A DNA stretch of 64,000 bases from an uncultured Bacteroidales bacterium (lineage in GTDB: Bacteria; Bacteroidota; Bacteroidia; Bacteroidales; UBA10428), in the NCBI GenBank assembly GCA_963790105.1, contig CAWBNI010000042.1, forward strand, positions 27,235-91,234. Direction: 5' to 3'. The notes under the pieces are model-generated. The model had not been told where the DNA came from. It did not search any database and saw only the letters and a program-made list of their open reading frames with translations. Of the stretch, positions 8,787-58,175 are shown piece after piece. A program made the translations under genes and the position numbers. Positions within the stretch are counted from its first letter, which is position 1. Each line of letters starts with the position of its first letter.

Positions 8787-8787
8787 A

Positions 8788-13634: not shown

Positions 13635-13824
13635 GAAGAATGAACAATGTGCCGAAGGCATCCCTTCGGGAGAAAACGATTTGCTAGATGTGCCAATGTG
13701 CCAATGTGCTAATATGCCAATGTGCTAATTTTTTTCTATGTTTCTTTGTGCCATGCTAGTGCCTTTGTGGCAAAACTGCAGAACTGCAGAACCAGACTGC
13801 ATAACTGCAGAACCGTATAACTGC
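13579..13824 (+). repeat. Composite mosaic element: (GGGACNA)7 array, hairpin element hp1, (GTGCCAAT)5 array, conserved box GTGCCTTTGTGGCAAAACTGCA, (AACTGCAG)n array
   Basis: GGGACNA array 13579-13630. hp1 13638-13684, with stem CCGAAGG-catc-CCTTCGG at 13652-13669. GTGCCAAT array 13688-13729. Box 13759-13780. AACTGCAG array 13773-13824. Confidence 0.85.
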
Positions 13825-13903: not shown

Positions 13904-14059
13904 TTACTTACTTGCTATTTCGTCGGAAACAGTCAGTCTTTTTCTTCCCTTGGCACGGCGGCTGGATAGTACTTTGCGTCCATTGGCTGTGGACATTCTT
14001 TCCCTGAATCCGTGTTTATTGCGCCTCTTTCTGTTGGATGGCTGATATGTTCTTTTCAT
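13904..14059 (-). CDS. rpmH: 50S ribosomal protein L34
   Basis: Not in the ORF track (51 aa). My translation is [51 protein letters not shown], the universally conserved L34 sequence pattern. Confidence 0.95.
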
Positions 14060-14097
14060 TGCTGTGCTTTTTTATGTATGCTGATAAAATCGGAATG

Positions 14098-14135: not shown

Positions 14136-14300
14136 GGCAATTGTTTCTTGGCAATGTGCTATTATGCTAATGTGCCAATGTGCCAATCTGCCAATGTGCC
14201 ATATGTGCCAATGTGCCAATGTTCATGAATGCCAATGCGCTAATCATATACTATCGTCTCCTTGTGCCTTAGTGCCTTTGTGGCAAAACTGCAAAACTGC
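14136..14300 (+). repeat. Composite element: (GTGCCAAT/GTGCTAAT)n array, box GTGCCTTTGTGGCAAAACTGCA, AACTGCA units. A direct copy of the module on the other side of rpmH
   Basis: Array ~14136-14245, box 14272-14293, AAACTGCAAAACTGCGG to ~14300. Same order and orientation as 13688-13824. Confidence 0.8.
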
Positions 14301-14311
14301 GGACCAGTCCC

Positions 14312-35845: not shown

Positions 35846-36341
35846 AGGAGGGACAAGGGACGAGGGACGAGGGACGAGCAGGAAATATCCTTTTAGAGGA
35901 TATCTGGCAGTAGAAGAAGTTACGGGGGATAAGGAATTCATCTGATATTATTTCCAGTTATACAATCCATTAACGATTTTGAATTTATTGGAATTACCAG
36001 AGGGTAATTTTAAAGTGGAAGGTCTTTATGTAGGGACGAGGGACGAGGGACAAGGAAGTTTTGCAGTTTTGCAGTTACTAGCGGTTCTGCGATCATGCAG
36101 TCGTGCAGTCGTGGGCAGATAAACTGTTCTGCGGTTCTGCAGTTAAGGTGCCGGAAAATGCGCGTAGCGCATTAATTATTGTAGAATGTGCAGTATGCTG
36201 CAGTTTTGAATGGTGTAGTCGAGACAGCCTCGGAGAGGCCTGATTTCAATAACCGTGGTGTACCCACGGAGAATGAGTGCGTTGTCTCTCAGCCCGAGGG
36301 CTGACAAAAATCGTAAATCGTATATCGTAAATCGTAAATCA
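35846..36341 (+). repeat. Composite mosaic region with arrays, hairpins and hp2 element A
   Basis: GGGACGA array 35846-35882. Hairpins ATATCC..GGATAT (~35886-35903) and ATTACC-agag-GGTAAT (~35993-36008). Second GGGACGA array 36030-36055. TGCAG arrays 36058-36144. Hairpin AATGCGC-gta-GCGCATT 36157-36173. hp2 copy A 36227-36269 (GCCTC-gga-GAGGC, TGATTTCAATAACC, CCGTGG-tgtac-CCACGG). AATCGTA array 36307-36341, ending 7 nt before the MORN gene ATG. Confidence 0.85.
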
Positions 36342-37022: not shown

Positions 37023-37228
37023 AGTTCTGCGGTTCTGCAGTTCTGCAGTTCTGCGGTTATGCGGTTATGCAGTTCTGCAGTTCTGCAGTCGTGCAGGTCG
37101 GGCCTCGAAGAGGCCTCGATCTCAATAACCGGGTGTGAAAACCCACGGAAAATCGTAAATTGCAATCGGCAAATCGTAAATAGCAAATCTAAATCGTAAA
37201 TGCAATCGTAAATCGTAAATCGTAAATC
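37023..37228 (+). repeat. Composite mosaic element: (GTTCTGCA)n, hp2 element B, (AATCGTA)n. A direct copy of the module upstream of the MORN gene
   Basis: GTTCTGCR octamers 37023-37098. hp2 copy B 37101-37148 (GGCCTC-gaa-GAGGCC, TCGATCTCAATAACC, imperfect second stem). AATCGTA-type units 37150-37228, ending 5 nt before the GT4 ATG. Confidence 0.85.
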
Positions 37229-40053: not shown

Positions 40054-40086
40054 CTCAATCAACAATCAACTATCAACAATCAACTA
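40054..40086 (+). repeat. (CAATCAAC)n degenerate octamer array
   Basis: CTCAATCAACAATCAACTATCAACAATCAACTA. A related single unit lies at 40001-40010, a hairpin ATCCT-gttagcg-AGGAT at ~39961-39977, and the same word family occurs at 50283-50312 and (reverse) 57916-57946. Confidence 0.75.
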
Positions 40087-40203
40087 AATCCCGATAGGGT
40101 AAAAACCGGGTTTCGGGTCTTAAATACAGAAAAGCTTTTCAAACGATATTAAAACCATAAACGAAAGAAATTAAAGTTATCCAACAATAAATAAATAGCA
40201 ATC

Positions 40204-41513
40204 ATGAAAACAATTGTAACAAACATGAGTAAGGGCCTGGCCATGATGCTGCTGGTTTTCTCAATCACCGCCATGCAAGCCAAAGGTTCAGTTTTTAGCC
40301 ATTCAAGGGCTGCAAAGGATACAGCTTTCCGCACATTTACCGGTAAGGTAATTGATAACACCACTAAAAAACCAGTCGTATTTGCCAACGTATATCTCAT
40401 CGGAAGTAGTCTGGGAACCGTAACAAACGCCGAAGGAGAATTTGTGTTAAAGGTTCCGGTAACTGAATTAGACCGTAAAGTGGGCTTTTCCTACCTGGGA
40501 TATAACAACATGGTGGTAGCGCTGGCCGATATGAAGGAAAAGGACAATGTAGTGAAACTTGAGACTTCCGCCGTATCGCTCGATGCAGTTGTTATCCGTA
40601 CAGATGATCCGGTTGATTTGCTCAATATGGCCTTCAGGAAAATCAGCGAGAACTATAAGAGTGATCCTGAAATGCTTATCGGCTTTTACAGGGAAACAGT
40701 AAAACAGAACAAGAGTTACGTTGCAGTTGCAGAGGCAGTGCTGGATGTTTACAAGTCTTCGTATAACAGCATGATTGACTATGACAGGGTACAGATTTAT
40801 AAAGGCCGTAAAAGCCAGGATGTTAAGAAAATGGATACCCTGATGTTCAAACTGCAGGGTGGTCCCAGGACAAGCTTTCTGCTTGATGTTGTGAAGAATC
40901 CGGGTGAATTGCTGTCAGAAGATTATCTTGAGAACTACAATTTCAGGTTTGCAGGTTTTGCATACCATTGATGGCAGGGACAACTATGTGATTGAATTTG
41001 ACCAGAAGCAAAATGTTGAATTGCCGCTGTACAAGGGCCGCATTTATCTCGATACCAAGAATATGGCCTTTGCCCGACTGGAATTCTCCCTGAGTGATAA
41101 AGCACTTGTGCTGGCCAGCAGCGACCTTGTTCGCAAAAAACCCATGGATTTGAAGGGTTGACGTTCTGGGAGCTGACTACCTGGTTAACTACAGGGTGCT
41201 GAATGATAAATGGTATCTGAATCATGTGAGATCAGAACTTACCTTCCGCTGCAACTGGAAAAAGAAACGTTACAATTCAACCTATACCACAGCGCTCGAA
41301 ATGGCAGTAACTGACAGGGATACGATCAATATCAACAAGTCGAGATACAAAGATCAGTCAAAATCATCGGATATATTTGCCGACAAGGTTAATTCATACA
41401 AGGATGAAAACTACTGGGGAGAATACAACTACATCAAACCCGATGAATCGATAGAATCGGTCATCAACAAGCTCAACAGGAAACTTAAATGGAAAGCAAT
41501 CGGAGAAAACTAA
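40204..41513 (+). pseudogene. CarboxypepD_reg-like domain protein with ~330-aa uncharacterised C-terminal region (2 frame interruptions); paralogue of 43275-44895
   Basis: Signal peptide MKTIVTNMSKGLAMMLLVFSITAMQA. Carboxypeptidase-regulatory-like domain FTGKVIDNTTKKPVVFANVYLIGSSLGTVTNAEGEFVLKV. The C-terminal region aligns by eye with the STN protein (GFYRE..., YKGRIYLD/YKGRILLD, YWGEYNYI/FWGEYNFI). Confidence 0.6.
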
Positions 41514-41663
41514 TCCATATATGATCATCATCCCCCTGGACTACCGTCTTAATAAAAGGCAAAATGGGACAGGGGGGTGATTTATTTAAGAAGCAAACAT
41601 GGAAAATAAAGATGATAATTGTAGATTTACGATCCTTGAAAAGATGATAAAAAACAACCGTCG

Positions 41664-42209
41664 ATGATTGTACAGGCCGAAACGGTAACCATGGGTCAGA
41701 TCTCACTCGGAAATCTGAAAGCATACGAAATGTTGTTCAGGCAATATTACCAGATGCTTTGCAGCTATTCCCTTAAATTTGTGGGTGATCCTGATGTGGC
41801 CGAAGAAATTGTGCAGGATCTTTTTTACACACTGTGGGAAAAAAGAATGGAACTGCAGATCAATACTTCGGTGAAATCCTACCTGTTTTCAGCCGTACAT
41901 AACCGGTGCCTGAAATTCATAGAACACCGTAATGTGGAACAAAAATACAGGAGCTATTACCTTCAGCATGAATCGGAAATTGACAGTGAACCGTTTGATT
42001 CAGCCAATGTGGGTGAGATGCAGCAGATTATTAATCAAACATTGGATTCACTGCCCGAAAGATGCGGAAGAATTTTCAGGCTGAACCGGTTTGAAGGACT
42101 TAAGTACCATGAAATTGCAAATAAGTTAAGTATTTCTGTAAAAACAGTAGAAGCCAATATGGGCAAGGCGCTTAAAGATTTTGCGCAAGAATTTGAAAGA
42201 GTTTGTTGA
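41664..42209 (+). CDS. RNA polymerase ECF-type sigma-70 factor
   Basis: Region 2 (AEEIVQDLFYTLWEKR) and region 4 HTH (LKYHEIANKLSISVKTVEANMGKAL). Followed by a FecR-type anti-sigma gene. Confidence 0.9.
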   Translation: MIVQAETVTMGQISLGNLKAYEMLFRQYYQMLCSYSLKFVGDPDVAEEIVQDLFYTLWEKRMELQINTSVKSYLFSAVHNRCLKFIEHRNVEQKYRSYYLQHESEIDSEPFDSANVGEMQQIINQTLDSLPERCGRIFRLNRFEGLKYHEIANKLSISVKTVEANMGKALKDFAQEFERVC

Positions 42210-42230
42210 AGTAGCATAATACAATACGAT

Positions 42231-43243
42231 ATGTTCACCAAAAGTAAAACAGATTGGGGCCTTCTGGCCAAGTATCTCGCAGGAGAAACCAATGAGAAGG
42301 AAAAGGCAGCCGTGGAAAAATGGCTTGGCCAAAGCGCGGAAAACCGTGCGGAATTTGGAAAATTAAGATCAGACTGGAAGATAATGGAAAGTATGAAACA
42401 ATTTGATGTAGATAATGCATGGAAAAAGCTCCATGGCAGGATTCTTGAAAATGAAGAACCTGTTCTGTCAGATAGCGGAAAAAGCGCTGATATGCATCGC
42501 CGGATATCATGGGGAACTCCGCTCCGGATTGCAGCATCCCTGTTGTTGTTGATTGCCCTCGGTGCTTCTGTTGCAATTGCAGTCGGCAGGTTCCAGAAAG
42601 TGACAGTCACCACTTCCGCAAATGAACGGTTAAAGAATGTAACTCTTCCCGACGGTTCGACGGTGACGATGAATTCCAATACCACGCTGAGTTACATGAA
42701 ACATTTCCGTCGCAATACAAGGAATGTTAACATTAACCGGTGAAGCTTTCTTTGAAGTTACACCGGATAAATCCAGGCCCTTTATTATCCAGACTGATGA
42801 AGCTGACATAAGGGTAGTAGGAACCTCATTCAATGTGGATACCAGAGGAAGTTCTTCCACTGTTGGAGGTATATGTTTCTACGGGCATTGTGGAAGTATA
42901 TAAACCTGAAAGCAGGAATAACAGTGTCTTTCTTCATCCGGGTGAGATGGGAACGGTTTCAAACAAAATCATTCACAGCAAGAAAGCAAGCAATGAAAAT
43001 GCCATTGCCTGGAAAACAGGAAGAATGGATTTTCGTGATATTCCCTTGTCTGAAGCCGTTGAGATGTTGAATAAAATGTACAATGTGAATATCATCCTCA
43101 AAGAACCGGGATTAGCCTCAATTAGAACAGTGGGCGAATACAGGTATCCTGAAGAACCGCTGGATACAATCCTTCGGGTTTTTTGCCAACAAAATTTTCT
43201 TAGAATTGAAAAATCCGATAACAAGATATATCTTTCGAAATAA
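42231..43243 (+). pseudogene. FecR-family anti-sigma factor / transmembrane sensor (one frame interruption)
   Basis: N-terminal anti-sigma part plus TM (ORF 42231-42743: ...LLAKYLAGETNEKEKAAVEKWL...). FecR and C-terminal domain (ORF 42833-43243: ...IAWKTGRMDFRDIPLSEAVEMLNKMYNVNI...). Confidence 0.8.
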
Positions 43244-43274
43244 ATAGGCTGAAATCCTGGTTTATTTCGGAAAA

Positions 43275-44895
43275 ATGGAAATCTGTAAACAAAATATACC
43301 CTTTATAGGATCATCCATTCCCCTTTCAGATGATAAACATCACAATAAAACCTGCCGGAATTTCCGTGACAGGTTTTATTTGTTTTTGATCCTGTGCCTG
43401 ACGGGATTGCCGTTTGTTTCAGCCCAGGATTCCTTGCTGGTTCAGCATTTCACGGTTCCTGATACAACCTGTACGGTGGATGCAGCCATGCAATTGATAG
43501 AACAGCAAACCGGCCTGTCTTTTTCATATAATACGGATATCATCAACAAGAAGAAAGTCATCACCCTGCATGGCGGACCGGAATGAATTGATCCACATTC
43601 TTGAAAATACCTTTAACGATCCGCAGTTAAACTTCAGCATCATTGGACGCCATATTGTGGTTTACCAGACCCAGCGGACCCTCTCTGCCAATCCCGAAAG
43701 GCCCAGGGATTCGGTGTATTTTTTTGAGATCAGGGGAAGGGTGCTTGATAAATCGGATAAGCAACCCCTGCCTTATTCCAGTATTTATCTTTCAGGCAAA
43801 GCAATAGGAACTGTTACAAACGATAACGGGCAATTCCAGTTAAAACTGCCTTCGAAATACCTGGCTGATACGCTTATTGTTTCATGTATCGGATATAAGC
43901 GGATCAAGGCGCCGGTTTCAAGCTTCCTGAGTGAAGAAAAGGATTACCTGTTAAAACCTGATGTGATATCAATCCAGGAAGTGATCATCCGGAAAATCAG
44001 TCCGGTTAATCTGCTTCAGTCTGCCACAGAAGCGGTGTTTGAGAATTATCCCGACAAGCCGGCCATTCTCAATTCATTTTACAGGGAAATGATCAAAAAG
44101 GGAAGCCGTTATATGATGGTTTCAGAAGCTATTCTTGAAAACTATAAACCGGGCTATGACAGGACAGCAGCTTCTGACCAGGTTAAAATATCTGAAGGGA
44201 AGAAAAAGCCAGGATCCGGGAACAAAGGATACAGTGATCCTGAAACTGAAAGCCGGGCTGAATACAATGCTTCAGCTGGATGTGGTGAAAAACATGCCCG
44301 ATTTCTTAACCGGCGAAAATACGCAGGATTATGATTACAAAATGTCGGATATCGTTGTGGATAATGGAAGGGAACAATATGCCATTGAATTTTCACCTAA
44401 AAAAGGCTCGGAAAATATATTTTATAAGGGACGAATATTGCTCGATGTAAGGAATCTTGCTTTTACCTGGGTAGAATTTTATGTCGATCCGGAAAAGCTT
44501 GACATGGCAACGAAGAATTTTATTGTAAAGAAGCCTTCCTATATGAAGGTGAAAGTTCTGAAAGCCAGTTATAAAATTGCTTTCCGGTTGACAGGCAACA
44601 AGTATTACCTGCACATGATTGAATGTGAAACGGAATTCAGGATCAAGGACAGACATCAGATTCTCAGGATCGGTATATCATACAGGACTTGGAAATGGTT
44701 GTTACAGAAATTGATACCATAAATGCTGCCCGGTTCAAATTCAGGGAAACTGCCCGGTTAAATGAGTTTTTTACCGACCAGCTGGGCGCTTATGATGAGT
44801 CCTTCTGGGGGGAATATAATTTCATCAGTCCGGAAGAATCTTTGGAGCAGGCACTGGTTAAGCTGGCGAAGAAGAAAGTGACGAGTGACGAGTGA
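43275..44895 (+). pseudogene. STN-domain + CarboxypepD_reg-like protein lacking a TonB-dependent plug/barrel (about 3 frame interruptions)
   Basis: STN-like signalling domain (VDAAMQLIEQQTGLSFSYNTDIINKKKVIT...), then IRGRVLDKSDKQPLPYSSIYLSGKAIGTVTNDNGQFQLKL, then the same C-terminal region as 40204-41513. Total ~540 aa, too short for a SusC/FecA barrel. The last codons (KKVTSDE) come from the GTGACGA array. Confidence 0.6.
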
Positions 44896-45117
44896 CAAGT
44901 GACAATGTGCTAATGTGGCGAATGTGGTAGGATGTGCAAATGTGCTAATCGTGCCAATGCCATGTGCCAAAGGGCAATGTGCAAACTATGCCAACGTGCA
45001 AAACTGCAAGACTCATAAACTATATTTCTTATGTGCCATGGCAATGCCTTTGTGGCAATAACTGCAAAACTGCATAACTTCATAATCATAATTCATAATT
45101 CATAATTCTTAATTTCT
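44878..45117 (+). repeat. Continuous 240-bp chain of drifting short tandem arrays: GTGACGA, GTGACAA, TGTGCTAA/GTGCCAA, GTGCAAAAC, box, TGCAAAAC/TGCATAAC, CATAATT
   Basis: GTGACGA/GTGACAA 44878-44905. ATGTGC/GTGCCAA units 44904-45000. 10-bp palindrome TGCCATGGCA 45034-45043. Box TGCCTTTGTGGCAATAACTGCA 45045-45066. CATAATT units 45079-45117. Confidence 0.85.
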
Positions 45118-45154
45118 TATTTTTGTCTATCTTTAAATCAAATAAAGGCAGATC

Positions 45155-45767
45155 ATGGAAGACATTAGGGATGCGAATACAAGAGAATTCATCAGCACCG
45201 CATCTGATTTCTGCAAGTTAATGGAACAGGCTCCAAAGATGCGTACAGGTGAATTATTTAGCCAGTTACAGCAAATGTTACCGGTTATTTATGCCAAAAG
45301 CGCAAGATTATCCAAGCCAAAGTACTGTTATGAGGAGGAACCCAAAGAGGTTCGTTGGCGAGGAGGAATATGCCCGGGTACATGATGCAATACAGCAAAA
45401 AATTGAATTGTATTTTGGCATAACACAAATGTCGCCTGGCACGGGTCCCAGCCAGTTTGAGATCATGAGTTTCAGCATGGCTGAAGGATTTGCCGACCTG
45501 TACGAGCAACTGAAGAATTGTGTTAAACTTTATAATGTGGAAATTCCACAGGCAATGAATGATGCAATCTGGCTTTACTATGATAATTTTATAACAAGCC
45601 TGGGTTTAAAGTTAATTGAAAGTCTCAGATCACTTCACCAACTCCTTTACAGTAAAAGCACCGAGGGGTCACGTGCAATACAGGACAATGATTTTGAGCT
45701 GAATAGGGACGAGGAGGAACCCTGGTATTCCGATGATCAGGAGGAGGTATATGGAGATGATGAATGA
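45155..45767 (+). pseudogene. DUF5063-like protein (one frame interruption)
   Basis: ORFs 45155-45385 and 45249-45767 overlap in two frames. Acidic C-terminus. The family call rests on the remembered synteny DUF5063 / 3'-5' exonuclease / rRNA methyltransferase in Bacteroidales, so it is tentative. Confidence 0.45.
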
Positions 45768-46354
45768 AAATGGCTACTTCAAAGCCGTTGAAGATGAATA
45801 CATAAAATCACTCCCTGCTGGTAGTTTTTCAGGACAAGTTTTTGTGGTTGATCATCCCGGTATATTGAATGAAGTGCGGGATGCGCTGGACGGTAATTCT
45901 GTTCTTGGATTTGATACCGAGACCAAACCTTCGTTTAAAAAAGGGCGTTTTCACCAGGTTGCCCTGCTGCAGATTTCCACCCAGGACAAGGCATTTTTAT
46001 TCCGACTGAACAAGATACCCCTGCCTCCATTTGTAATTGATATCATGGAAGATCCTTCCATTGTGAAAGTGGGTGTGGCACTGAAAGATGACCTGAATGC
46101 ATTGATGAAGCTAACTCCCTTTAAACCCCAGGGATTTATTGATCTTCAGCAATTTGTAAAGCAATTTGGCATTGAAGACAACGGATTAAAAAAACTGGTT
46201 GCCAACATCCTGGGATTTCGCATTTCCAAGCGTTTTCAGACTTCCAACTGGGAACAGGAAGTATCTGGGACCCGAACAGCTTTGCTATGCCGCTACCGAT
46301 GCCTGGGCCTGCCACCAGATATATACATCCCTCATAAACAATTTAATCAATTAA
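45733..46354 (+). pseudogene. 3'-5' exonuclease domain protein (RNase D/DnaQ-like), C-terminal frame interruption
   Basis: Exo motifs (VLGFDTETKPSF..., ALLQIST...). After ...SNWEQE the frame must shift (~46265-46290) to give ...YAATDAWACHQIYTSLINNLIN, then TAA at 46352-46354 abutting the rlmI ATG. Start (45733/45751/45757) is uncertain. Confidence 0.7.
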
Positions 46355-47543
46355 ATGGAGCCATTCAGTCGCGTTATCCTGAAATCGGGGAAAGAACAAT
46401 CAATCAAGCGCCTTCATCCCTGGATTTTTTCAGGTGCCATAAAGAAAATCGAGGGAAAGCCGGCTGAAGGTGACACTGTGGAAATATTTTCCGGCACCGG
46501 AGAATACCTGGCAACCGGTCATTACCAGATAGGATCCATTGCAGTGCGGATTTATTCTTTTCACCAGGTCACTACCGGATTTTGATTTCTGGAGAATGAA
46601 ATTCAAGTCTGCCTTGGATTTGCGCACTACACTCGGACTCACTGATAATAAAGACACCAATGTATACCGGCTTGTAAACGGTGAAGGTGATGGCATGCCC
46701 GGTTTTATTGTCGATTATTACAATGGCATCGTGGTGATGCAAATGCATTCCGTTGGCATGTACCTTTTGAGGGAACAGCTGGCAGAGGTAATAAAGGCCT
46801 TGTATGGCGACAAATTACTGTCCATTTATGATAAAAGCGAGGGTACAATTCCTGTGAAAGCCGGGTTAGGGATCAAAAACAAGTTCATTTACGGTGATCA
46901 GTCCGTTATTGAGATCATTGAAAACGGCTGCCGTTTTTCAATCGATGTTATTTCCGGACAAAAAACAGGATTTTTTATTGATCAGCGTGAAAACCGCGAA
47001 CTTCTTACCCGGTACATCAAAGGCAAAGATGTGCTCAATATGTTTTGCTATACCGGAGGATTTTCGGTTTATGCCTTGCATGGCGGCGCTGCTTCGGTTG
47101 ATTCTGTTGATAGTTCGGCCCAGGCCGTGGAACTTACCAAACAGAATGTTAGCCTGAATCCTGAAGGTACCGGCAGGCATCAGACCTATATTGCCGATGC
47201 GTTTTCCTTTTTAAATGACATCGCTGATAAATATGATGTGATCATTCTCGATCCCCCTGCGTTTGCCAAGCATACCGATGCACTCGACAATGCACTGATG
47301 GCTTATAAACGGCTTAATGCCAAAGCAATTGAACAGATCAGGCCGGGAGGGATCATTTTTACATTTTCCTGTTCCCAGGTAGTGAACAGGGAGAATTTCA
47401 GGCGGTCGGTTTTTGTAGCCGCAGCCAATACCGGGCGCAATGTCAGGATACTTCATCAGCTTGTCCAGCCACCGGATCATCCCGTCAGCATCTTTCATCC
47501 CGAGGGGGAATACCTGAAGGGACTTGTGCTGCAGGTGGAATAG
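46355..47543 (+). pseudogene. rlmI: Class I SAM-dependent rRNA (cytosine-C5) methyltransferase, RlmI-like (one frame interruption)
   Basis: N-terminal PUA-like part (MEPFSRVILKSGKEQSIKRLHPWIFSGAI...) in ORF 46355-46585. Methyltransferase core (VLNMFCYTGGFSVYA..., ILDPPAF...) in ORF 46539-47543. Confidence 0.75.
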
Positions 47544-47783
47544 AGTGACAAGGGACAAGGGACTAGGGACAAGTCAGTTTGAATGTTGCCGAAGTCATCA
47601 CTTTGGGACACCAAAACAAATTTCGAAAATGTGAAAATGTAGACTAAGATTCAATTTGTAGAATCCTTTGTGCCTGTTGTGGCAGAAATATTCACGCCGA
47701 CTTTAGAACATTCGCTCAGAAGCCTGCAGAACCTGCAGAACTGCAGAACCTACTTGTTACTCGTCACCTGTCCCTTGTCACTC
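47543..47783. repeat. Mosaic element between convergent rlmI and MORN genes, with inverted heptamer arms
   Basis: Left arm GAGTGACAAGGGACAAGGGACTAGGGACAAGT (47543-47574). hp1 variant CCGAAGT-catc-ACTTTGG (47589-47606). Box variant CCTTTGTGCCTGTTGTGGCAGAAAT (~47665-47690). CTGCAGAA array 47722-47750. Right arm ACTTGTTACTCGTCACCTGTCCCTTGTCACTC (47752-47783), the inverted heptamer arm. Confidence 0.85.
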
Positions 47784-48223
47784 TTAACAAGTTCTCCTTT
47801 ATCGTACATCCCGCTCTGGCTGGTGCCATTAGCCCAGGTATATTTTCCCTGTCCCTGGAAAAGGTTATCCTTGAAGTAGCCGGTATATTTATCCCCGTTG
47901 GGATAGAAATAAATGCCATATCCGTTTTGAATTCCCTGTTCCCAGGCGCCTATATATTTTGATCCATCGGACCATATGTATGTGCCCTGGCCCTGGAATT
48001 TATCCTTTACCCACATGCCGTCATAGGAACTGCCGTCATTGCCCTTCAGCATGCCCCGGCCTTCTCTTAGTCCGTTCACAAAACCTCCTTCATAGGAAAA
48101 CCCGTTTGAATATCGATAGGTTCCCTTTCCATTTTCACAATTTCCATATACACATCCCTGCTTGTCCTGTGCATAGGCCATCACCGGTAAGAAGAAAATC
48201 AGGTAAAGAATCGTTCTTAGCAT
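47750..48223 (-). CDS. Secreted MORN-repeat protein (157 aa)
   Basis: Signal peptide MLRTILYLIFFLPVMAYAQ. About 6 MORN units (YEGGFVNGLREGRGM, YDGMWVKDKFQGQGTY, YIGAWEQGIQNGYGIY, YTGYFKDNLFQGQGKY). The last 9-10 codons (SDKGQVTSNK) are encoded by the heptamer arm. Confidence 0.8.
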   Translation of the reverse strand: MLRTILYLIFFLPVMAYAQDKQGCVYGNCENGKGTYRYSNGFSYEGGFVNGLREGRGMLKGNDGSSYDGMWVKDKFQGQGTYIWSDGSKYIGAWEQGIQNGYGIYFYPNGDKYTGYFKDNLFQGQGKYTWANGTSQSGMYDKGELVKSDKGQVTSNK

Positions 48224-48323
48224 TTCTTTTATTATTAAAATTGTATATGCTTTTACGCACGATTTTATTTATCAGTTACATCAAACCCTGAAATTATACC
48301 GTCATCCTGCATAAAATCTCCAA

Positions 48324-49894
48324 ATGAAAACCTACAACCAAGAAAATACCCGATCTGCTCTGGACAGGTCTCATCGCAATTTTTACACTTGTGGTGCATA
48401 TGGCCACATACAATACCCTGGGTTTTCACCGGGATGAACTGCTTTACCTTGCTCTGGGCAGGCATCTTGCCGCAGGATACTGGTCAAATCCGCCCTTAAT
48501 TGGATTTATAAGTTATTTTACGCAGCTTCTGCCGGGCAGTACACTCTTTACTTTGAGATTATTTCCTGCCCTGGCCGGTGCTTTGCTGATCATCATAACC
48601 GGACTGATGACACGGGAACTGGGTGGCAAAACCTATGCCCAGGTACTGGCCTGCATCTGCCCTGGCTGTTTCACTTCTTTTCATGCGTGCCTTTTCCATG
48701 TTCCAGCCTGTTTGCTTTGATATTCTGTTCTGGTCGCTTATTCTGTATGCCTTTTTGCGGTATATCAACACCGAAAAACCTGTATATCTGATCCTTGTCG
48801 GAGTGGCATTCGGTTTTGGCTTTCTGAATAAATACATGGTGATTTTCCTGGCAGCCGGACTGGCACTTGGCTGTCATACCCACACCATACCGAAGGCTGT
48901 GGATAAACAAGTATTCATGGTTGGCCATTCTCATTGCGCATGCTGTTGTTGCTTCCAAATATCATCTGGCAGTATATTCATGGTTTTCCGGTTCTGCATC
49001 ATATGAAGGAATTGAAGGAAACCCAGCTTGTGAATGTTAAGCGAATGAATATTGTTATGGATCAGATCCTGATGTTTACAATCAGCGCCCTGGTATGGGT
49101 GGCCGGGTTGATATGGCTGCTCAAATCGCTGAATGCCAAAAAATTCAGGGTATTCGGATATGCCTATGTGGCGATCATGCTTATCTTTCTATTCCTGCGC
49201 GGGAAAAGTTATTATATGGCAGGGCTTTATCCCATCCTGTTTGCAGCCGGTGGTGTTTCATGGGAAAAGTCGCTGAAAAGAACAGTTTCGCGGATACTCC
49301 TGGTTCTTTTTATTATTCTTCTCACCATCCCGATTCTGCCCGGTGCCATTCCATTTATGTCAGCTCCCAAGCTGGTTTCTTATTTCAGCAGGATTCCGCC
49401 TAAAATGGGCGGTGAGGCACTGGTTACGCTGGGAAGACGGTAAAATGCACCCGTTGCCGCAGGATTATGCGGATATGCTGGGCTGGGATGAACTGGGCAG
49501 CGTTGTGTTGAAAGCCTGTGATACCATTAAGGACAAAAAAAGTATCATGATTTACTGTGAAAATTATGGACAGGCCGGAGCGGTGGATTATTGCAACAGA
49601 TGTCACGGGCTGCCTGAAGTTATAAGTTTTGCAGATGCCTACCGGCTATGGGCACCGGATACGATCAGCAAAGCAAAGAATATCTTTTTGTATGTAAATA
49701 ATGAACTGGGTGGGGATGTGGATTCCCTTTTTGCAAATATTATAGTTGCAGGAAGCATCACAAATCCCTATGCGAGGGAAAAGGGAACTACTGTGTACAT
49801 GTGCCGCGAGCCAAGAGCGGACTTTCCGGCGTTTTGGAAGAGGAGGATGGAGGAGGTGAGAGGGGAGAGGGGAGAGGTGAGAGAGGAGAGGTGA
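48324..49894 (+). pseudogene. Glycosyltransferase family 39 (ArnT / dolichyl-phosphate-mannose-type membrane glycosyltransferase), frame interrupted at least 4 times
   Basis: ATG 48324 (MKTYNQE) shifts at the A4 run 48343-48346 to KIPDLLWTGLIAIFTLVVH...GFHRDELLYLALGRHLAAGYWSNPPL. Further polytopic segments lie in ORFs 48391, 48623, 48934, 49095 and 49343. The C-terminal tail (EEVRGERGEVREER) is translated from the purine-rich array. Confidence 0.7.
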
Positions 49895-50312
49895 GATATG
49901 AGTAGGGAGTAGTAAGAAGTAAGGAGTAAGGAGTAAGGAGTAGGGAGTAGGGAGTGAGGAGTAAGGAGTAATGGAGTGAGGAGTAGGAGTAATTCCTTTA
50001 GGGGTGAGACATTGGGGCGAATAATGAACAATGAGCAATGTGCCGAAGGCATCCCTTCGGGGAGAACTATTTGCAATTTGCAATATGCAATGTGAAAAGC
50101 AAATGTGCAATGTGCTAATGTGCAAATGTGCAAATGTGCTAATGTGCTAATGTGCAAATGTGCTGACTCAGTTATGCATAAACAAGGTACATATTACCCT
50201 GGAAGAATCAAATCACTGATTTGCAGTTACTGCCATTCACCATTCACCATTCACCATTCACTTTTTCAACCGCAGAACTACCTATCAACTATCAACCATC
50301 AACAATCAACTA
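49838..50312 (+). repeat. Largest composite mosaic region (~475 bp) with six array types and an hp1 copy
   Basis: GAGAGGG/GGTGAGA and GGAGTAA purine arrays 49838-49992. hp1 50023-50074, with stem CCGAAGG-catc-CCTTCGG at 50043-50060. AATGTGC-type array 50069-50165. CATTCAC array 50233-50261. CAATCAAC array 50283-50312, overlapping the CE15 stop. Confidence 0.85.
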
Positions 50313-51683
50313 TTTTTCAAAATACCGGCTTGCAAAATCAAGGAAAACAGGCCAGTTGGGAGCCGGGGTATGACCCCCGTCGTGCTGGCGAAAGGCAATT
50401 TCACCCTGAACCAGGGAAGTGCCTACTGGTGGAAATATATGGGTTCCAAGATCATTTTTACCGAGTAACTTATAAACCGGGCCGGCCGCAACAGCAGCCA
50501 TAAACATCCCCCTGGCATCCACCCAGGCATCACCAACTTCTCCACTGCTGATAAATACCGGCCGGGGTGCGCATAATGCGATCAGCTCATGAGCATCCAC
50601 GGGCAGATCGTCCCATGTCAGCGGTCCGGCATATTTCATGAAATTTCCGGCCATCCAGTGGTACTCTCCTGAACTGGCAATATTTTCAACCAGTTCACCG
50701 GCATTTCTCCTGTGCAGTTTAACTCCTGCCTCTCCCGAAGAACTTATAAACACAATGGCAAACCGGCTGTCATAAGCCATGGCCACAGCGGCTGCTTTTC
50801 CAAACCGGGAATGTCCTTCCATTCCAACATGTCTGGCATCAATCGATTTATCCGTTTCCATATAATCAAGAACCCGGCTGGCACCCCAGGCCCAGGCACG
50901 GAGAGCACCCCAATCGTCCGGTTTGCGGGGTTTTCCGCCATTCACCAGACCAATTATTCCCCTTGTTAATCCGGCCCCATAATCCGCCTGTACACTGGTG
51001 GGTAGATAAACCGCATAACCCCAGCCCCGGTTAAGTACCTGCTGCTGCCAGGAGGGTTGGTCGTTTCCGGCACTTCCCATGGGAGGGGGCGGAAGTTTAA
51101 AGCCCTTCGGAAAAACATAACCGAATTCCATGATTACAGGAACCGGTTTTGAAATATTGGCGGGTAGCGTGATAGTTACCTGTATATCTACCTGCACGGA
51201 GGGACAGGCAGAATTATCCACATGACCCACGAGTTTTTTTGAAATCACGCGTACATTGCCTTCCATTGTTTTTGTAATGCTGATTAGTTCCCATTTCACA
51301 GAAGGTGTTTTAGATGGCACACGGCCGTATATTTCCCTGTCAAAATCTTCCACAATTTCAGGACGTCGTTCTTTCCACCAAATTTCAGGAGTGTCGACTT
51401 TTCTGCCATTTTTCAAAACCAGGGGGTCGGGCAGTCTGGGATATGGATTTGCCTTGCTTTCATCATAATTGGCTGCATTGGGAGCATTCGGATCCATCCC
51501 GTTTACTCCCGGCCTGAGGGAAGTTATGTTCAGCAGTCCCATCATATATTGATGATCCTGTTCGGTTATCCTTTTGATACTATCCCATGCCGGACCCGGC
51601 TGCGCTGACAAATAGCTGCATGTTAAAACATAAAGGAAAACGATCGAAAGCAGGATTTTTAGTTTATGGGATATCATCACCAA
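50310..51683 (-). CDS. Carbohydrate esterase family 15-like glucuronoyl esterase (alpha/beta hydrolase)
   Basis: Intact 457-aa ORF with signal peptide. Nucleophile motif GHSRFGKAA (bacterial CE15 G-x-S-R-x-GK type) and C-terminal FRQHDGGH. Adjacent to a GH115 gene. Family call is from remembered motifs. Confidence 0.6.
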   Translation of the reverse strand: MVMISHKLKILLSIVFLYVLTCSYLSAQPGPAWDSIKRITEQDHQYMMGLLNITSLRPGVNGMDPNAPNAANYDESKANPYPRLPDPLVLKNGRKVDTPEIWWKERRPEIVEDFDREIYGRVPSKTPSVKWELISITKTMEGNVRVISKKLVGHVDNSACPSVQVDIQVTITLPANISKPVPVIMEFGYVFPKGFKLPPPPMGSAGNDQPSWQQQVLNRGWGYAVYLPTSVQADYGAGLTRGIIGLVNGGKPRKPDDWGALRAWAWGASRVLDYMETDKSIDARHVGMEGHSRFGKAAAVAMAYDSRFAIVFISSSGEAGVKLHRRNAGELVENIASSGEYHWMAGNFMKYAGPLTWDDLPVDAHELIALCAPRPVFISSGEVGDAWVDARGMFMAAVAAGPVYKLLGKNDLGTHIFPPVGTSLVQGEIAFRQHDGGHTPAPNWPVFLDFASRYFEK

Positions 51684-51693
51684 TAATTAGAAA

Positions 51694-51750
51694 TTTTCAA
51701 ATCTTCAAATTTTCAAATCTTCAAATCAACAAATCAATAAATCAATAAAT
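51694..51750. repeat. (TTCAAAT / ATCAATAA)n degenerate array filling the GH115-CE15 intercistronic gap
   Basis: TTTTCAAATCTTCAAATTTTCAAATCTTCAAATCAACAAATCAATAAATCAATAAATTCA, read directly. It spans essentially the whole 67-nt gap. Confidence 0.8.
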
Positions 51751-54735
51751 TCATTTGTGAAAACTTTCCGGTGGTCCCAGGTAACCTGGTTTTACACCGC
51801 CGGTATTAACAACTATTTTTTGCAGCACTATACCCGGATCAACCATCCAGATTTTCAGGGTATGATAGCCAGGCAAACTGATTGAATGCCGGCTGGATCC
51901 CATCCTGAAATTATCACTTACAGTTTGTTCCCAGTCGATATTACCGTTTTTGGCATCATAATCCCTGGGAACAAGCGTAATAATCTGCGGTTTTTCATCA
52001 TCCAGGCTGATCGCATATCTCACATCCCGGCCTGGCATGAAATTCAGGGAAGGCCCAAAAACCGGATTTACCCTGATATCGCCGGAAGTGAACAAATACA
52101 TCCGGTACTCAAGGCATGGCGAATTTATACCCGGAGCAAGGGAATCATAAACATCCGCATACGTCCGCATACCGGAAAGTGTATGCCCGTACTCTTCAAT
52201 TTTTTCCCAGCGGCTTTGCATGATGCCATCCGTTTTCCTTGTATAATGTTCCGCTTCCATCGAAACACAGCCATTGCTTTCAACAAAACCATCCAGTTTA
52301 TCCGGAGTTGGCTCAGCTGGATTATTGACTGTAACATACACCTCTACTTCCTGTGAAGCCCCGTTAATTTTAAGCATACCCTTTATTTTCCCTCCCGGCA
52401 CCTTAGCCCAGTCGATGCTGATCCAAATCCGTTCCTGGGTATTTACTGTTCCCTTTGTTTCACTAATCCTTATCCATTTGGCTTTTGTGGAGACCCGGAA
52501 TTCAAAATCAGTTTTTCCCTTATTGAAAATCTCAACATACGAGGTTTGGCGGTTAAAGACATCAAATTCAGGGAGGATCGCCTGTCCGGATGCCCCTGGC
52601 CAGGCTTTTTCAGATCCTTCAATACTCACGCCCATAGACGGCTTATCTGTTGGTTGTAATTGTTTTAGTTTGATTGCCTCCAGGCTGTTATAAGGCGGAT
52701 CCCTCCAGCCGGTGTAACCCAGGTGAGGCTGATCCATGAAATGTTTCCATCTTCCGTCGGCGAATTTGTTATTGAAATAACCCATTAAACTGGTATCCTC
52801 CTGAAACAGTGACCGGGTTTTCAGGGCCATTTCGTTTGTGCTTGTTCTTCCCTGGTTGAAATACAATTCATTTTTGCCTGCAGTAATATAAAGTTCATTT
52901 ACCAGGGCACTGGCTTTAACAGGAAAAAGTACCAGCTGATAAAATGCATCCCGTTTATATCCGGGCAATTGATTATAAATATCTTCTGCCTGGGCAGCCA
53001 GAAGCTGAAAATCGCTCATGACAGTTTCAGCTTCCCGGTAATTTGTGAGGCTGTAGGTATCTGGCGCCAGCAGTTCAGGCTTGCGACGGCCATTGAATCG
53101 GGTATATCCCGAAATGATACTGGCAATTTCTTTCGAATGGGCCTCCCCAAATTGCTCCACTGACCACCTGCGGGTATATTCCTGCAAATTGTCGTTAGTC
53201 AGGCTATCCTTGTACCATGCCAGGTTTAGAAAGAATTCCATGGGAAACTCGTAGCCTTTCAGATGACCGACGTTGACTATCCAGATCCTGTCCGCACCAT
53301 ACTGCCGGGCCAGTGACATCTGATCCCAGATTTTCGGAATCGGGTTGCTGTTGATCCATTGATAGCTTCGCGGCCCGCCATGGTAATCGAAATGATAATA
53401 AATTCCCGCACCGCCGCTCCTGTTGAGCTCATCTTTCGTTGGCAGCCGCCGGATATTTCCCCAGTTATCCTCGGCCCACAGAAGGGTGACATCATCCGGT
53501 ACACGCATCCCTGCCTTATAATAGTCCAGCACTTCCTTATACAGGCACCACATCTGCGGCACACGGGTCACATCCTTATTTATTTCTTCCGAAATAATCC
53601 CGCGCTGAACATTCACTATTTCCTCAAGCAGACTTCGGTTTGCATCCGGACCACCCGGGGCCATTTCGGTGTCATCGGCACCACGCAGGCCAAGCGTGAT
53701 AATACTTTCATAGGATTTGTTCCGCCTGATCCCGTCTCTCCAGAATTGCCGGAGAGTATCTCCGTGTTTCACATAGTTCCAGCTACCCAGGGTGGACTTA
53801 TAGCGCCGGTCCCATTCCTTTTGCGCACGAAGCATGGGTTCCTGGTGTGATGTGCCCATCACTATACCATATTCATCTGCCAGCCGGGCGTTAAGGGAAT
53901 CATCTTCATTGAAGGCATTATTCCACATGGCAGGCCATAGATAATTTCCCTTTAGCCGCAGGATAAGTTCAAACACCCTGCCGTAAAATTCATGGTTGTA
54001 ATTGGCCACACCGTTTGGAATGGGGGGATGATCACCCGGCTTTACGGTCCCGAATTTCGCATAGATCCAGTTGGTAAGGTCAGGAGCCTCGTCATTCAAA
54101 AAAATTCCACGGTATTTCACCGAGGGAGGTCCCTCAGAATAAACTCCTCTTTTTACACAGATTACATCCCTGTGTTCGGGCTTTACATCGGCCCACCAAT
54201 ACCAGGGCGACACTCCTATTTTTTTTGAGAGTTCGTATATTCCATAAATAGTACCTCTCTTGTCGCTTCCGGCAATAACAAGTGCTTCATCAACACCCGG
54301 GAAGGGATTTTTGACTACCAGGATACGGAACATTTCCCACTGGCCTTTGATATCATTTGTCAATAGCCCGGAATTAACCAGTTTATCAATGATGGGACTG
54401 CCAATGGTTCCGGCGATCAGAATCTTTCTTCCTGCAGGAATTGTATCAAAATACAGGGTGGGTTTAGTATTGGTAACGACATCAATATCGCGCTGCAGAT
54501 CCCTGAATGTCCTGATAACACCGGGGTAATCGGCTGAACTGATTAACATTGGCACTGATTTTCCCCGGGCAGAAATACAAAATCCGTCTGTTGTATCATT
54601 TGTAATTACCAGTCCTTTTGAAGATTTATCCAATGGATCCTTCAAGCCTGAAGTTTCTGTGGCTGCATGCGATCTGTTGATGAAAAGGATCAGCAAAAAG
54701 CAGAGGATTATTTTTTTGAACTGGTAAAGTGACAT
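51751..54735 (-). CDS. Glycoside hydrolase family 115 (xylan alpha-1,2-glucuronidase)
   Basis: Intact 994-aa ORF with signal peptide. N-terminal and catalytic regions carry GSDKRGTIYGIYELSKKIGVSPWYWWADV and VKYRGIFLNDEAP, patterns I associate with GH115. Confidence 0.8.
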   Translation of the reverse strand: MSLYQFKKIILCFLLILFINRSHAATETSGLKDPLDKSSKGLVITNDTTDGFCISARGKSVPMLISSADYPGVIRTFRDLQRDIDVVTNTKPTLYFDTIPAGRKILIAGTIGSPIIDKLVNSGLLTNDIKGQWEMFRILVVKNPFPGVDEALVIAGSDKRGTIYGIYELSKKIGVSPWYWWADVKPEHRDVICVKRGVYSEGPPSVKYRGIFLNDEAPDLTNWIYAKFGTVKPGDHPPIPNGVANYNHEFYGRVFELILRLKGNYLWPAMWNNAFNEDDSLNARLADEYGIVMGTSHQEPMLRAQKEWDRRYKSTLGSWNYVKHGDTLRQFWRDGIRRNKSYESIITLGLRGADDTEMAPGGPDANRSLLEEIVNVQRGIISEEINKDVTRVPQMWCLYKEVLDYYKAGMRVPDDVTLLWAEDNWGNIRRLPTKDELNRSGGAGIYYHFDYHGGPRSYQWINSNPIPKIWDQMSLARQYGADRIWIVNVGHLKGYEFPMEFFLNLAWYKDSLTNDNLQEYTRRWSVEQFGEAHSKEIASIISGYTRFNGRRKPELLAPDTYSLTNYREAETVMSDFQLLAAQAEDIYNQLPGYKRDAFYQLVLFPVKASALVNELYITAGKNELYFNQGRTSTNEMALKTRSLFQEDTSLMGYFNNKFADGRWKHFMDQPHLGYTGWRDPPYNSLEAIKLKQLQPTDKPSMGVSIEGSEKAWPGASGQAILPEFDVFNRQTSYVEIFNKGKTDFEFRVSTKAKWIRISETKGTVNTQERIWISIDWAKVPGGKIKGMLKINGASQEVEVYVTVNNPAEPTPDKLDGFVESNGCVSMEAEHYTRKTDGIMQSRWEKIEEYGHTLSGMRTYADVYDSLAPGINSPCLEYRMYLFTSGDIRVNPVFGPSLNFMPGRDVRYAISLDDEKPQIITLVPRDYDAKNGNIDWEQTVSDNFRMGSSRHSISLPGYHTLKIWMVDPGIVLQKIVVNTGGVKPGYLGPPESFHK

Positions 54736-54798
54736 TTTAGGTGTATTTCAATTTCTAAATTAGCCTTTTTAGCGTTAATTTGTGAAAGATTCAACAGA

Positions 54799-55551
54799 AT
54801 GGGGAAAAAACTTTCTCAAAAAACGGCTATCATCACAGGCGGAGCCACGGGTTTGGGTTTTGCCATGGCTCAAAAATTTGTAGAGCACAATATACGTATC
54901 ATCCTCATTGGCCGGAACGAAACAAAGTTAAAAGACGCATGCCAGTCCCTGGGTCCGCTCGCCAGCTTTGTGAGCCTTGATCTTACAAGGCTTGACGAGA
55001 TACCGAAAGCAGTAAATTCTATAGCAGAACAATGGGGATCAATTGATATCCTGGTAAACAATGCAGGTATCCATTTAAAGAAAGCCTTGCTGGAAGTATC
55101 AAACGATGAATTCCAGGGCATCATATTAACCAACCAGACAGCAGTTTTCACCATTACGCGCGAGGTGGCGGCTATCATGAAGAAACAGGGTTTTGGTTCA
55201 GTTCTGAACATAAGTTCGATGGCATCGAAGTATGGGATACCGCAAGCGATTGCCTATTCCGCCGCCAAATCCGCCATTGAAGGAATGACCCGGGCCATGG
55301 CGGTTGAATTGTCACCATTTGGTATACGGGTTAACTGCATTGCACCGGGATTCATAAGGACCAACATGTCCTCAAAGGCACTTGACAATGATTTGGAACG
55401 AAAGCGCAAGGTACTTTCAAGAACCCCTCTAGGTCGTTTGGGCGAACCGGCAGAAGTAGCGGAAGCGGCTTATTTTCTAGTTTCCGATGCAGCAGCCTTT
55501 ATAACAGGTGTTGTTCTGCCTGTTGACGGTGGAAATTCAATTGGTTTCTGA
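54799..55551 (+). CDS. SDR-family oxidoreductase (gluconate/mannonate-type dehydrogenase context)
   Basis: Intact 250-aa ORF with TGGATGLG cofactor motif, NNAG, and catalytic S...YSAAK. Precedes the ManD-type dehydratase. Confidence 0.85.
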   Translation: MGKKLSQKTAIITGGATGLGFAMAQKFVEHNIRIILIGRNETKLKDACQSLGPLASFVSLDLTRLDEIPKAVNSIAEQWGSIDILVNNAGIHLKKALLEVSNDEFQGIILTNQTAVFTITREVAAIMKKQGFGSVLNISSMASKYGIPQAIAYSAAKSAIEGMTRAMAVELSPFGIRVNCIAPGFIRTNMSSKALDNDLERKRKVLSRTPLGRLGEPAEVAEAAYFLVSDAAAFITGVVLPVDGGNSIGF

Positions 55552-58094: not shown

Positions 58095-58175
58095 CATTGT
58101 TCACTGTTCATCGTTCTTCGTTCCTCGTCCCTTCTGTCTCTCCTTGTCCCTCGTCTCATCGTCCCTCGTCCCTTC
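58095..58175 (-). repeat. Graded heptamer array drifting from CATTGTT to TCGTCCC (GGGACGA on the minus strand), overlapping the 3' end of the minus-strand gene
   Basis: CATTGTT CACTGTT CATCGTT CTTCGTT CCTCGTC CCTTCTG TCTCTCC TTGTCCC TCGTCTC ATCGTCC CTCGTCC CTTC. The first five units each differ from the previous one by 1-2 substitutions. Confidence 0.85.

Follow-up and report, generated by a model that had tools for sequence, protein, structure and literature searches.

A repeat-filled spacer between two co-directional genes

We analysed a 64,000-nt stretch of contig CAWBNI010000042.1 from an uncultured Bacteroidales bacterium, hereafter the window; it is our sample of this genome, and window-based counts cover those 64 kb. 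Our subject is a tract of short tandem repeats at positions 44878-45117, which is the entire non-coding spacer separating two co-directional genes (Table 1). An earlier note, made from the sequence by eye, had described this tract as a word ladder, in which each short unit differs slightly from its neighbour and one array type morphs into the next. We find that the tract is probably a compound hypervariable simple sequence repeat (SSR) spacer with 7-8-nt units, shaped by slippage and re-amplification of units together with the exchange of composites between loci.

The upstream gene encodes a CarboxypepD_reg-like protein and is preceded by an extracytoplasmic function (ECF) sigma factor and FecR-like pair; its intact orthologue in the relative L001 has 538 aa. 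The stop codon of this gene (TGA, 44893-44895) falls within the GTGACRA array. The DUF5063 gene lies on the other side of the spacer and is followed by a 3'-5' exonuclease gene and then by an RlmI-like methyltransferase gene. Relatives have the identical gene order, with the genes intact. The homologous proteins with a named source are labelled Bacteroidales, and the closest contigs come from metagenomes assembled with long reads. The record behind the relative L003 is a metagenome-assembled genome (MAG) of an uncultured Bacteroidales bacterium.

Tandem Repeats Finder (TRF) reports arrays at 44877-44903 (period 7), 44904-44927 (period 9) and 44899-44959 (period 17), and on the promoter side at 45055-45079 (period 8) and 45073-45114 (period 7). 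The box TATTTTTG matches TAnnTTTG, the -7 promoter consensus of Bacteroidetes, and marks a putative promoter; it is unchanged across a four-sequence alignment (A1). With regard to phase variation, in which repeats within an ORF or between promoter elements would switch expression, the TCATAAT array abuts this box, but the promoter-proximal 35 nt are invariant and copy number changes further upstream. As far as shown, the role of the tract at this locus is limited to two contributions: the upstream gene has its stop codon in it, and it forms the A+T-rich DNA that immediately precedes the putative DUF5063 promoter.

Table 1. Features of the spacer and its flanking genes, with further heptamer arrays and indel sites in the window
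Feature	Position	Strand	Basis or remark
Upstream gene, CarboxypepD_reg-like	43275..44895	+	Open reading frames (ORFs) and Pfam matches; split into three ORFs by single-base insertions
Family H heptamers GTGACGA GTGACGA GTGACAA GTGACAA (G[GT]GAC[GA]A)	44878..44905	+	Sequence, TRF
Family B, degenerate AATGTGCN octamers, ~11 units, several phase-breaking indels	44904..44999	+	TRF, alignment
Two AACTGCAR-like units, GCAAAACTGCAAGAC	44998..45012	+	Sequence
47-nt core TCATAAACTATATTTCTTATGTGCCATGGCAATGCCTTTGTGGCAAT, mostly non-periodic	45013..45059	+	Copy of dispersed module
Family C octamers AACTGCAA AACTGCAT AACT	45060..45079	+	TRF, sequence
Family D heptamers TCATAAT/TCTTAAT, decaying to TCTTAAT TTCTTAT, reaching into promoter	45080..45120	+	TRF, sequence
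Putative promoter box TATTTTTG	45118..45125	+	TAnnTTTG match, 30 nt upstream of ATG
Downstream gene, DUF5063	45155..45767	+	ATG at 45155; frameshift splits gene in two
Family H arrays in the window	2956, 13581, 19824, 19906(-), 35850, 44878, 47545, 47754(-), 56987(-), 58118-58172(-)		Stop-proximal
Example indel sites	42171, 43580, 44192, 44660, 44691, 45347, 46574		Versus L001

RNA folding of the spacer gives no excess of structure over shuffled sequences (z=-0.34), and no terminator-like site was found in it. Inverted repeats in the spacer are limited to 10-11-nt matches at chance level, with no palindrome and no terminal inverted repeats, and the whole 64-kb window contains no Rfam match at the gathering score. 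The folding result and the lack of a terminator-like site rule out a hairpin or terminator of the kind seen at 8780-9080. There, inverted arrays (TTAGGRGC)n ... (GCYCCTAA)n and an inner inverted repeat form a ~290-nt hairpin between convergent genes (minimum free energy -132.8 kcal/mol, z=-9.3). The earlier note had proposed the same laddering at 8788-8863. The units do drift there, but the structure is a different one, because this segment is one arm of that hairpin built of inverted arrays. A CRISPR array was also rejected, since the units are 7-8 nt long and directly abutting rather than 23-50-nt repeats with unique spacers.

Unit similarity and turnover of the spacer

We tiled all of 44878-45117 into 29 units, including the sequence skipped by the earlier note; the tiling is partly subjective. 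The units that the note lists are all present where it placed them, and its list leaves out some sequence that does not fit, including irregular units (TGTGGTAGGA and TGTGCCAAAGGGCAA among them) and most of the 45013-45059 core. Along the tiling, adjacent units differ by 0, 1, 0, 3, 2, 3, 4, 3, 4, 2, 10, 5, 5, 3, 2, 3, 7, 7, 2, 3, 8, 4, 1, 2, 4, 0, 0 and 2 edits. The proposal that each unit differs from the next by 1-2 bases is thus borne out within blocks but fails between them, with 12 of the 28 steps at two edits or fewer. That the array families are joined through single-step changes is overstated, as the steps between arrays are of 3-10 edits.

Adjacent units are nevertheless more alike than non-adjacent ones, as the note had expected of an edit-distance comparison under permutation: the normalised edit distance is 0.318 for adjacent versus 0.541 for non-adjacent units (p=5e-5, 20,000 order permutations). 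The distance between units grows with their separation up to ~4 units and then reaches a plateau (Mantel rho 0.43, p=2e-4). Even steps of three or more edits stay below random pairs that differ by at least three (0.447 versus 0.577, Mann-Whitney p=5e-4). For whole arrays the effect is weak. Abutting and unlinked arrays differ by 3.29 versus 3.93 edits in the window (n=7, p ~0.10), by 3.21 versus 3.85 when three orthologous loci, which are not independent, are added (n=19, p=0.014), and by 3.45 versus 3.81 in the 119 loci listed from other Bacteroidota (p=0.0016).

We compared the spacer with its orthologues, which are present in seven relatives; a 32-mer from the conserved promoter region, aimed at further orthologous spacers, had no match in metagenomes. 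Conservation is seen in the last codons of the upstream gene and in the 60 nt that lead from the final TCATAAT units across the promoter as far as the ATG, and not in the interior. Among the seven orthologous spacers copy number changes in whole-unit steps, from 2 to 4 for family D (TCATAAT), from 0 to 7 for family C (AACTGCAN) and from 0 to 11 for family B (AATGTGCN), and the promoter-proximal family D units are conserved. In L002 and L003, TGAACAA units replace the GTGACGA array in phase and the TGA is retained. Comparison of orthologous loci, which the earlier note had suggested for catching arrays in the act of growth or drift, thus reveals arrays that differ by whole units and some that have been replaced outright. 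The unit AACTTCAT at the junction of the AACTGCA and TCATAAT arrays is common to all lineages, down to ~80% DNA identity, and is therefore an old stable junction rather than a fresh copying error.

The L123 spacer (1106-2618) is interrupted by an insertion sequence (IS) with DDE_Tnp_1 and DUF4372 ORFs, and two promoter-proximal TCATAAT units are the sole remnant on its DUF5063 side. In syntenic relatives with 72-75% protein identity the spacers measure 93 nt, without arrays, and 63 nt; the ~170-250 nt of array DNA are hence a gain of this clade. Similarly, the spacer 3' of the RlmI-like gene carries a composite of ~190 nt in the window and in L001 (family H, hairpin, family B, core, family C), and is 62 nt long without this composite in L002. 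The L123 remnant, the absence in L002 and the short spacers of the syntenic relatives together indicate that the arrays are dispensable at a given locus. In L003, at ~80% DNA identity, the spacer 3' of the RlmI-like gene (9330-9490) has, instead of the short-unit composite, a 57-nt unit (CAAGCGGAACATCTTTCTACAATAATTGATCCTCTCCGAGGATCTTATG) repeated three times in tandem.

TRF also detects higher-order periods (14, 16, 21, 24 and 26 nt) whose match is better than that of the basic unit, which indicates that blocks of two or three units were duplicated. A copy-and-append process with error that strictly adds one unit at a time fits these periods less well than slippage or unequal exchange does. 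Length changes by whole units are also seen in viral contigs: L136 (7520-7680, minus strand) and L139 (3310-3410) have an identical 800-nt left flank, and their (GCYAATGT)n arrays of 128 and 96 nt are exactly four octamer units apart; their GCT and GCC units are also ordered differently. Several arrays of the family B octamer AATGTGCY drift along their length in a similar manner, forming in-phase ladders in L031, L037 and L010. In L031, an isolate of Capnocytophaga gingivalis (CCUG 13096), a ~240-nt ladder at 560-800 keeps a single 8-nt phase through CAATGTGT, CAATGTGC, TAATTTGA, CAATTTGC, TAATTGAC, TCATCAAC and TAATCGGC ... CAATTAA, beginning just 3' of a TATTTTTG promoter-like box. An array in the viral contig L131 (5350-5500, minus strand) alternates, in phase, between AATGTGCC-type units and the units GCCAGATT and GCCAGACT. 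Since the last two are similar to the AACTGCAR family, a single array can contain both octamer families.

A concern with any such pattern is that it may arise by misassembly or polishing in low-complexity sequence. The window indeed contains errors. Over 13 kb of coding sequence it differs from L001 (94% nucleotide identity) by 17 one-base insertions and two one-base deletions, none of them in homopolymers; this is about one single-base indel per 700 nt, and at least six genes are split into fragments (window 40055-54851). These indels probably are assembly errors, with an unusual bias towards insertion, and reflect an unpolished long-read assembly. Moreover, the AATGTGCN array of the window, with its phase-breaking indels, is far more irregular than its counterpart in L001, a clean (AATGTGCT AATGTGCA)n higher-order array. 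At this rate, however, ~0.3 errors are expected in 240 nt, and assembly error is thus too rare to make the repeat pattern. The same architecture is found at the orthologous site in six independent assemblies, the short-read L125 among them, and equivalent arrays occur in Illumina assemblies and in the isolate genome L031. An artefact is therefore extremely improbable. We likewise rejected sequencing error as the source of the irregular units, for which the measured rate is far too low, though single indels may be errors.

Shared vocabulary and dispersed composites in the window

The window is rich in such arrays. TRF returns 47 rows of period 6-9 covering 1,612 nt, compared with 37-154 nt in 20 first-order Markov simulations, a more than 10-fold excess; the arrays make up 10.8% of non-coding and 0.4% of coding DNA. 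They follow a recurrent order: stop codon, H (G[GT]GAC[GA]A), M (GAACAAT), the hairpin GCCGAAGGCATCCCTTCGGG, B (AATGTGCY), a core (TTTCTTTGTGCC..TGCCTTTGTGGCAA), C (AACTGCAR), and K (AAATCGT) or D (TCATAAT) heptamers just 5' of start codons. H arrays lie on or just 3' of stop codons and in sense orientation to that gene in 10 of 10 clear cases in the window, and convergent gene pairs thus end in inverted H arrays; C arrays are seen in both orientations. Some H arrays are translated as C-terminal tails, for example ...EEGTRDDETRDKERQKGRGTKNDEQ. In the distant relative L126, AATGAAC and GACAAGA arrays occupy the corresponding stop-proximal positions.

Part of the spacer is a composite that recurs elsewhere. 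The B array, a core of 40-50 nt and the C array are found in this order at 13687-13800 and 14150-14302 and in relatives, with copies of the core at ~13737-13773 and ~14243-14286 and also in L001. The invariant 14-mer TGCCTTTGTGGCAA occurs exactly three times in the window. The window composite is 81% identical to its L001 orthologue, though the flanks are 94% identical, and the L001 composite shares 84% identity with the paralogue at 14.2 kb in the window. In L125, two composites (L125a and L125b) are 91% identical to each other and 73% identical to their orthologues, and these two have a core variant of their own. Core and module order thus recur at several loci, and within a genome the copies resemble each other more closely than orthologues do, which points to homogenisation or dispersal between loci. 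Sequence comparison hence indicates that sequence also moves between loci, contrary to a purely local origin. Such movement may have come about through gene conversion, through template switching from one array to another, or through a mobile element that has gone unrecognised. The two direct copies at 13687-13800 and 14150-14302 flank rpmH, the ribosomal protein L34 gene (minus strand, ~13905-14060). In another dispersed module, at 36226-36290 and 37101-37148, GGCCTCGAAGAGGCC comes first and AATAACCGGGTGTGAAAACCCACGG second (two small hairpins); both copies lie 5' of AAATCGT arrays that run up to the start codons at 36349 and 37234.

These findings bear on the mechanism put forward in the earlier note, serial local duplication with error. 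In its strict form, units are copied from their neighbours and an array morphs in place, with no outside input. The neighbour similarity and its decay with distance, the ladders that drift in phase in other Bacteroidota (an isolate genome among them), and the alternation of two unit types in one phase in L131 are all as such a process would leave them. It does not account for the 3-10 edits between arrays, for abutting arrays being just marginally closer than unlinked ones, or for the ABAB and three-unit higher-order repeats, which require multi-unit duplication. Nor does it explain the recurrence of the same order and core at other loci, with paralogues closer than orthologues, or the junction units conserved over lineages ~80% identical in DNA. 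We thus regard strictly local duplication as rather unlikely. What survives of the note's mechanism is the gain and loss of units one by one; as a sole process it is at odds with the multi-unit blocks and the recurrence between loci. The latter also speaks against the note's view that the tract does not look like an insertion of prefabricated elements.

At the other extreme, the spacer could represent copies of a non-autonomous mobile element, similar to miniature transposable elements with inverted repeats (MITEs) or to repetitive extragenic palindromic sequences and bacterial interspersed mosaic elements (REP/BIME), which carries the arrays and inserts prefabricated 3' of genes. The array-core-array composite is present at three window loci with 75-84% identity, and the ~190-nt composite behaves as an indel between L001 or the window and L002 (one pair of filled and empty sites). 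A REP-like hairpin, GCCGAAGGCATCCCTTCGGG (stem CCGAAGG/CCTTCGG), is placed between stop-proximal heptamers and AATGTGCY arrays at 13651-13670 and 50042-50061, with a diverged copy at 47588-47607. It is multiplied in L125, two- and three-fold at 2556-2610 and 5225-5335 with flanking AATGAACAATG or CTAAAAG units, and the orthologous spacer of L125 has two copies. Short-read contigs also terminate in these elements. On the other hand, the spacer under study has neither terminal inverted repeats nor a hairpin, its boundaries fall at arrays and not at clean ends, and no linked transposase was identified, the IS in L123 being unrelated. The core 21-mer TGCCTTTGTGGCAAAACTGCA has no match in 185,579 species-representative genomes and one match in Joint Genome Institute (JGI) metagenomes, at a contig end, so that a mobile element would have to be limited to one lineage. 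Taken together, we consider insertion of a mobile element quite improbable. Likeness to REP/BIME and MITEs lies in the abundant, intergenic, dispersed and lineage-specific occurrence of the repeats and in the REP-like hairpin beside arrays at other window loci; the spacer differs from them in having no palindrome and no terminal inverted repeats, and within the 64 kb of the window no defined ends, target duplication or associated transposase were identified.

We therefore return to a compound SSR spacer as the probable account. Slipped-strand mispairing or unequal exchange would add or remove one to three units per event, and point-mutated units would be re-amplified as sibling blocks, giving rise to the neighbour similarity perceived as a ladder. 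A variant unit could take over an array in phase. Since many spacers have their units in common, array-core-array composites might be spread from locus to locus by gene conversion, template switching or ectopic recombination, and such exchange would keep the genome-specific unit vocabulary homogenised. Several points weigh against this account. Slippage is deduced from differences between strains, none having been directly observed. Neutral slippage leaves unexplained why the same octamer is found in many Bacteroidota orders, why it varies in a restricted set of four positions out of eight, and why G[GT]GAC[GA]A arrays have a constant sense orientation at stops. The recurrence, the restricted positions and the orientation suggest selection or a sequence-specific factor. 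In addition, no terminal inverted repeats or target-site duplications of the dispersed copies were identified, though no systematic search was made.

The AATGTGCY octamer, known repeats and possible constraint

A search with the pattern ATGTGCYAATGTGCYAATGTGC identified AATGTGCY arrays in at least 119 loci (L004-L122); the figures below refer to the matches listed, and this octamer alone was counted. Almost all belong to Bacteroidota of many orders and groups, among them Bacteroidales, Flavobacteriales, Chitinophagales, Saprospiraceae, Sphingobacteriales and others, and 15 IMG/VR viral contigs (L128-L142) carry such arrays as well. Matches assigned to Polynucleobacter and Didemnitutus MAGs lie on short contigs and may be binning contamination. 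The arrays are intergenic at 110 of the 119 loci. In-phase flanking units deviate at positions 1 to 8 in 32, 7, 4, 34, 15, 7, 42 and 20 arrays, respectively (chi-square p=7e-13). Variation is confined to positions 1, 4, 7 and 8 (R-A-T-N-T-G-M-Y), and drift of the octamer is thus not unconstrained.

We examined several simple explanations for the octamer. An orientation that follows transcription or replication is ruled out, there being no preference with respect to genes (54:45) or GC skew (55/111) among the loci listed, and the arrays are not usually inverted pairs (12 of 119). A DnaA box, a CRP half-site and a Bacteroidetes promoter box were dropped by eye, as the matches are partial and the spacing does not fit. 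Selection for stop codons in the units was also dropped by eye, since the variable positions destroy stops. A full-text literature search for the unit strings returned no paper containing them, and a keyword search for octamer repeats in Bacteroidota returned nothing specific.

The arrays could be functional, either as arrays of protein-binding sites in DNA or RNA or as 3'-untranslated region elements (G-rich, G-quadruplex-like or terminator-associated), with selection maintaining vocabulary and order. The breadth of the octamer, its restricted positions, the conserved module order and the sense orientation of the G[GT]GAC[GA]A arrays at stops are consistent with this, and the same rule of orientation has been published for G-rich heptamers in Xanthomonas and Nostoc. 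Against a function speak the presence/absence polymorphism at orthologous sites and the array-free spacer in a syntenic relative, which make the arrays dispensable per locus, as well as the lack of an orientation preference for AATGTGCY and of excess RNA structure in the spacer. The GTGACRA heptamer has no G-tracts, and the counts of octamer arrays cover AATGTGCY alone. A functional role is on balance unlikely. Somewhat less likely still would be that the arrays are not neutral debris of slippage but the product or the target of a sequence-specific Bacteroidota system, such as an R-A-T-N-T-G-M-Y-binding protein or an activity that adds repeats from a template or switches templates. If it existed, this system would explain the octamer across orders and in viral contigs, which may be phages of these bacteria, its restricted positions, the orientation of the stop-codon heptamers, and the fixed succession of modules, which runs stop, H, M, hairpin, B, core, C, K/D, start.

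We compared the tract with known repeat systems. Heptamers are prominent among the prokaryotic long SSRs whose units measure 5-11 nt (LSSR5-11; Mrazek, Guo and Shah 2007, summarised in PMC4679880), and expansion of these SSRs has been attributed to polymerase slippage rather than to a specific physiological role; according to the same summary, the ten genomes richest in such repeats in that survey include no Bacteroidetes. The tract resembles LSSR5-11, as there described, in its head-to-tail 7-8-nt units, its above-chance and overwhelmingly intergenic occurrence, its strain-variable length and its prominent heptamers, and it exhibits tandem iteration, an excess over composition and whole-unit length polymorphism. 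It differs from that description in chaining several unit families in a recurrent order, with a dispersed core and apparent homogenisation between loci. The G-rich heptamers GGGAATC of Xanthomonas and GGGGA(C/T)T of Nostoc are located 0-50 nt after stops on the coding strand, some overlapping the stop (Rehm et al. 2015, PMC4692102), and vary extensively in length and sequence between close relatives, as intergenic heptamer repeats do among Xanthomonas species (PMC4692102). The GTGACRA array and the G[GT]GAC[GA]A family share their stop-proximal, coding-strand position; unit sequence and phylum are different, and the published heptamers are not described as chained to other families. As the spacer units GTGACGA/GTGACAA contain no GGG, the proposed G-quadruplex is impossible there; sister GGGACGA arrays at 13581, 35850 and 36033 fit G3N4, a quadruplex pattern judged from sequence alone.

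TAACTGA and other heptamer direct repeats are known from Beggiatoaceae, Cyanobacteria and a few Bacteroidetes, often a few nt from start codons (MacGregor 2015, PMC4679880). Some Bacteroidetes spacers (Gramella, Aequorivita) hold several different heptamer arrays, and a post-transcriptional regulator is proposed in the same paper (PMC4679880). Like these repeats and the cyanobacterial short tandemly repeated repetitive (STRR) heptamers, the tract consists of direct-repeat arrays in a spacer, and the K (AAATCGT) and D (TCATAAT) arrays before start codons may be analogous. The units differ from those of the MacGregor system: neither strand of the window contains a run of two or more tandem TAACTGA units.

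Eukaryotic compound or interrupted microsatellites and minisatellite variant repeats display sibling blocks, decaying neighbour similarity, higher-order repeats and concerted evolution. As in the tract, stable interrupted junctions stand beside unstable pure runs, and whole arrays turn over. The tract differs in being bacterial, in its 7-8-nt units and in a genome-wide vocabulary shared over many short spacers. The tract thus adds another case to a kind of bacterial repeat already known, and no new copying mechanism is needed: the word ladder is how compound tandem repeats look under joint slippage, point mutation and re-amplification. In this lineage, ~11% of non-coding DNA lies in 7-8-nt arrays that share vocabulary and order and turn over faster than their surroundings. 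The arrays could serve as strain-typing markers and offer a system for studying concerted repeat evolution in bacteria; they also break short-read assemblies. The stop-anchored sense orientation, the fixed order and the position-restricted, phylum-wide octamer could make the lineage interesting, and are established as correlations. Two of these regularities, the sense-oriented heptamers at stop codons, already reported for Xanthomonas and Nostoc, and the phylum-wide AATGTGCY, hint at selection or a sequence-specific factor.

A further tract in the window, at 49853-49992 at the end of a PMT_2 gene, is long and purine-rich and comprises (GAGGGGA)n and, after it, ~9-12 units of (AGTAAGG)n. The second array is equivalent to a run of TAAGGAG, which is a perfect word of the Shine-Dalgarno type, and 49 nt of this tract are missing from L001.

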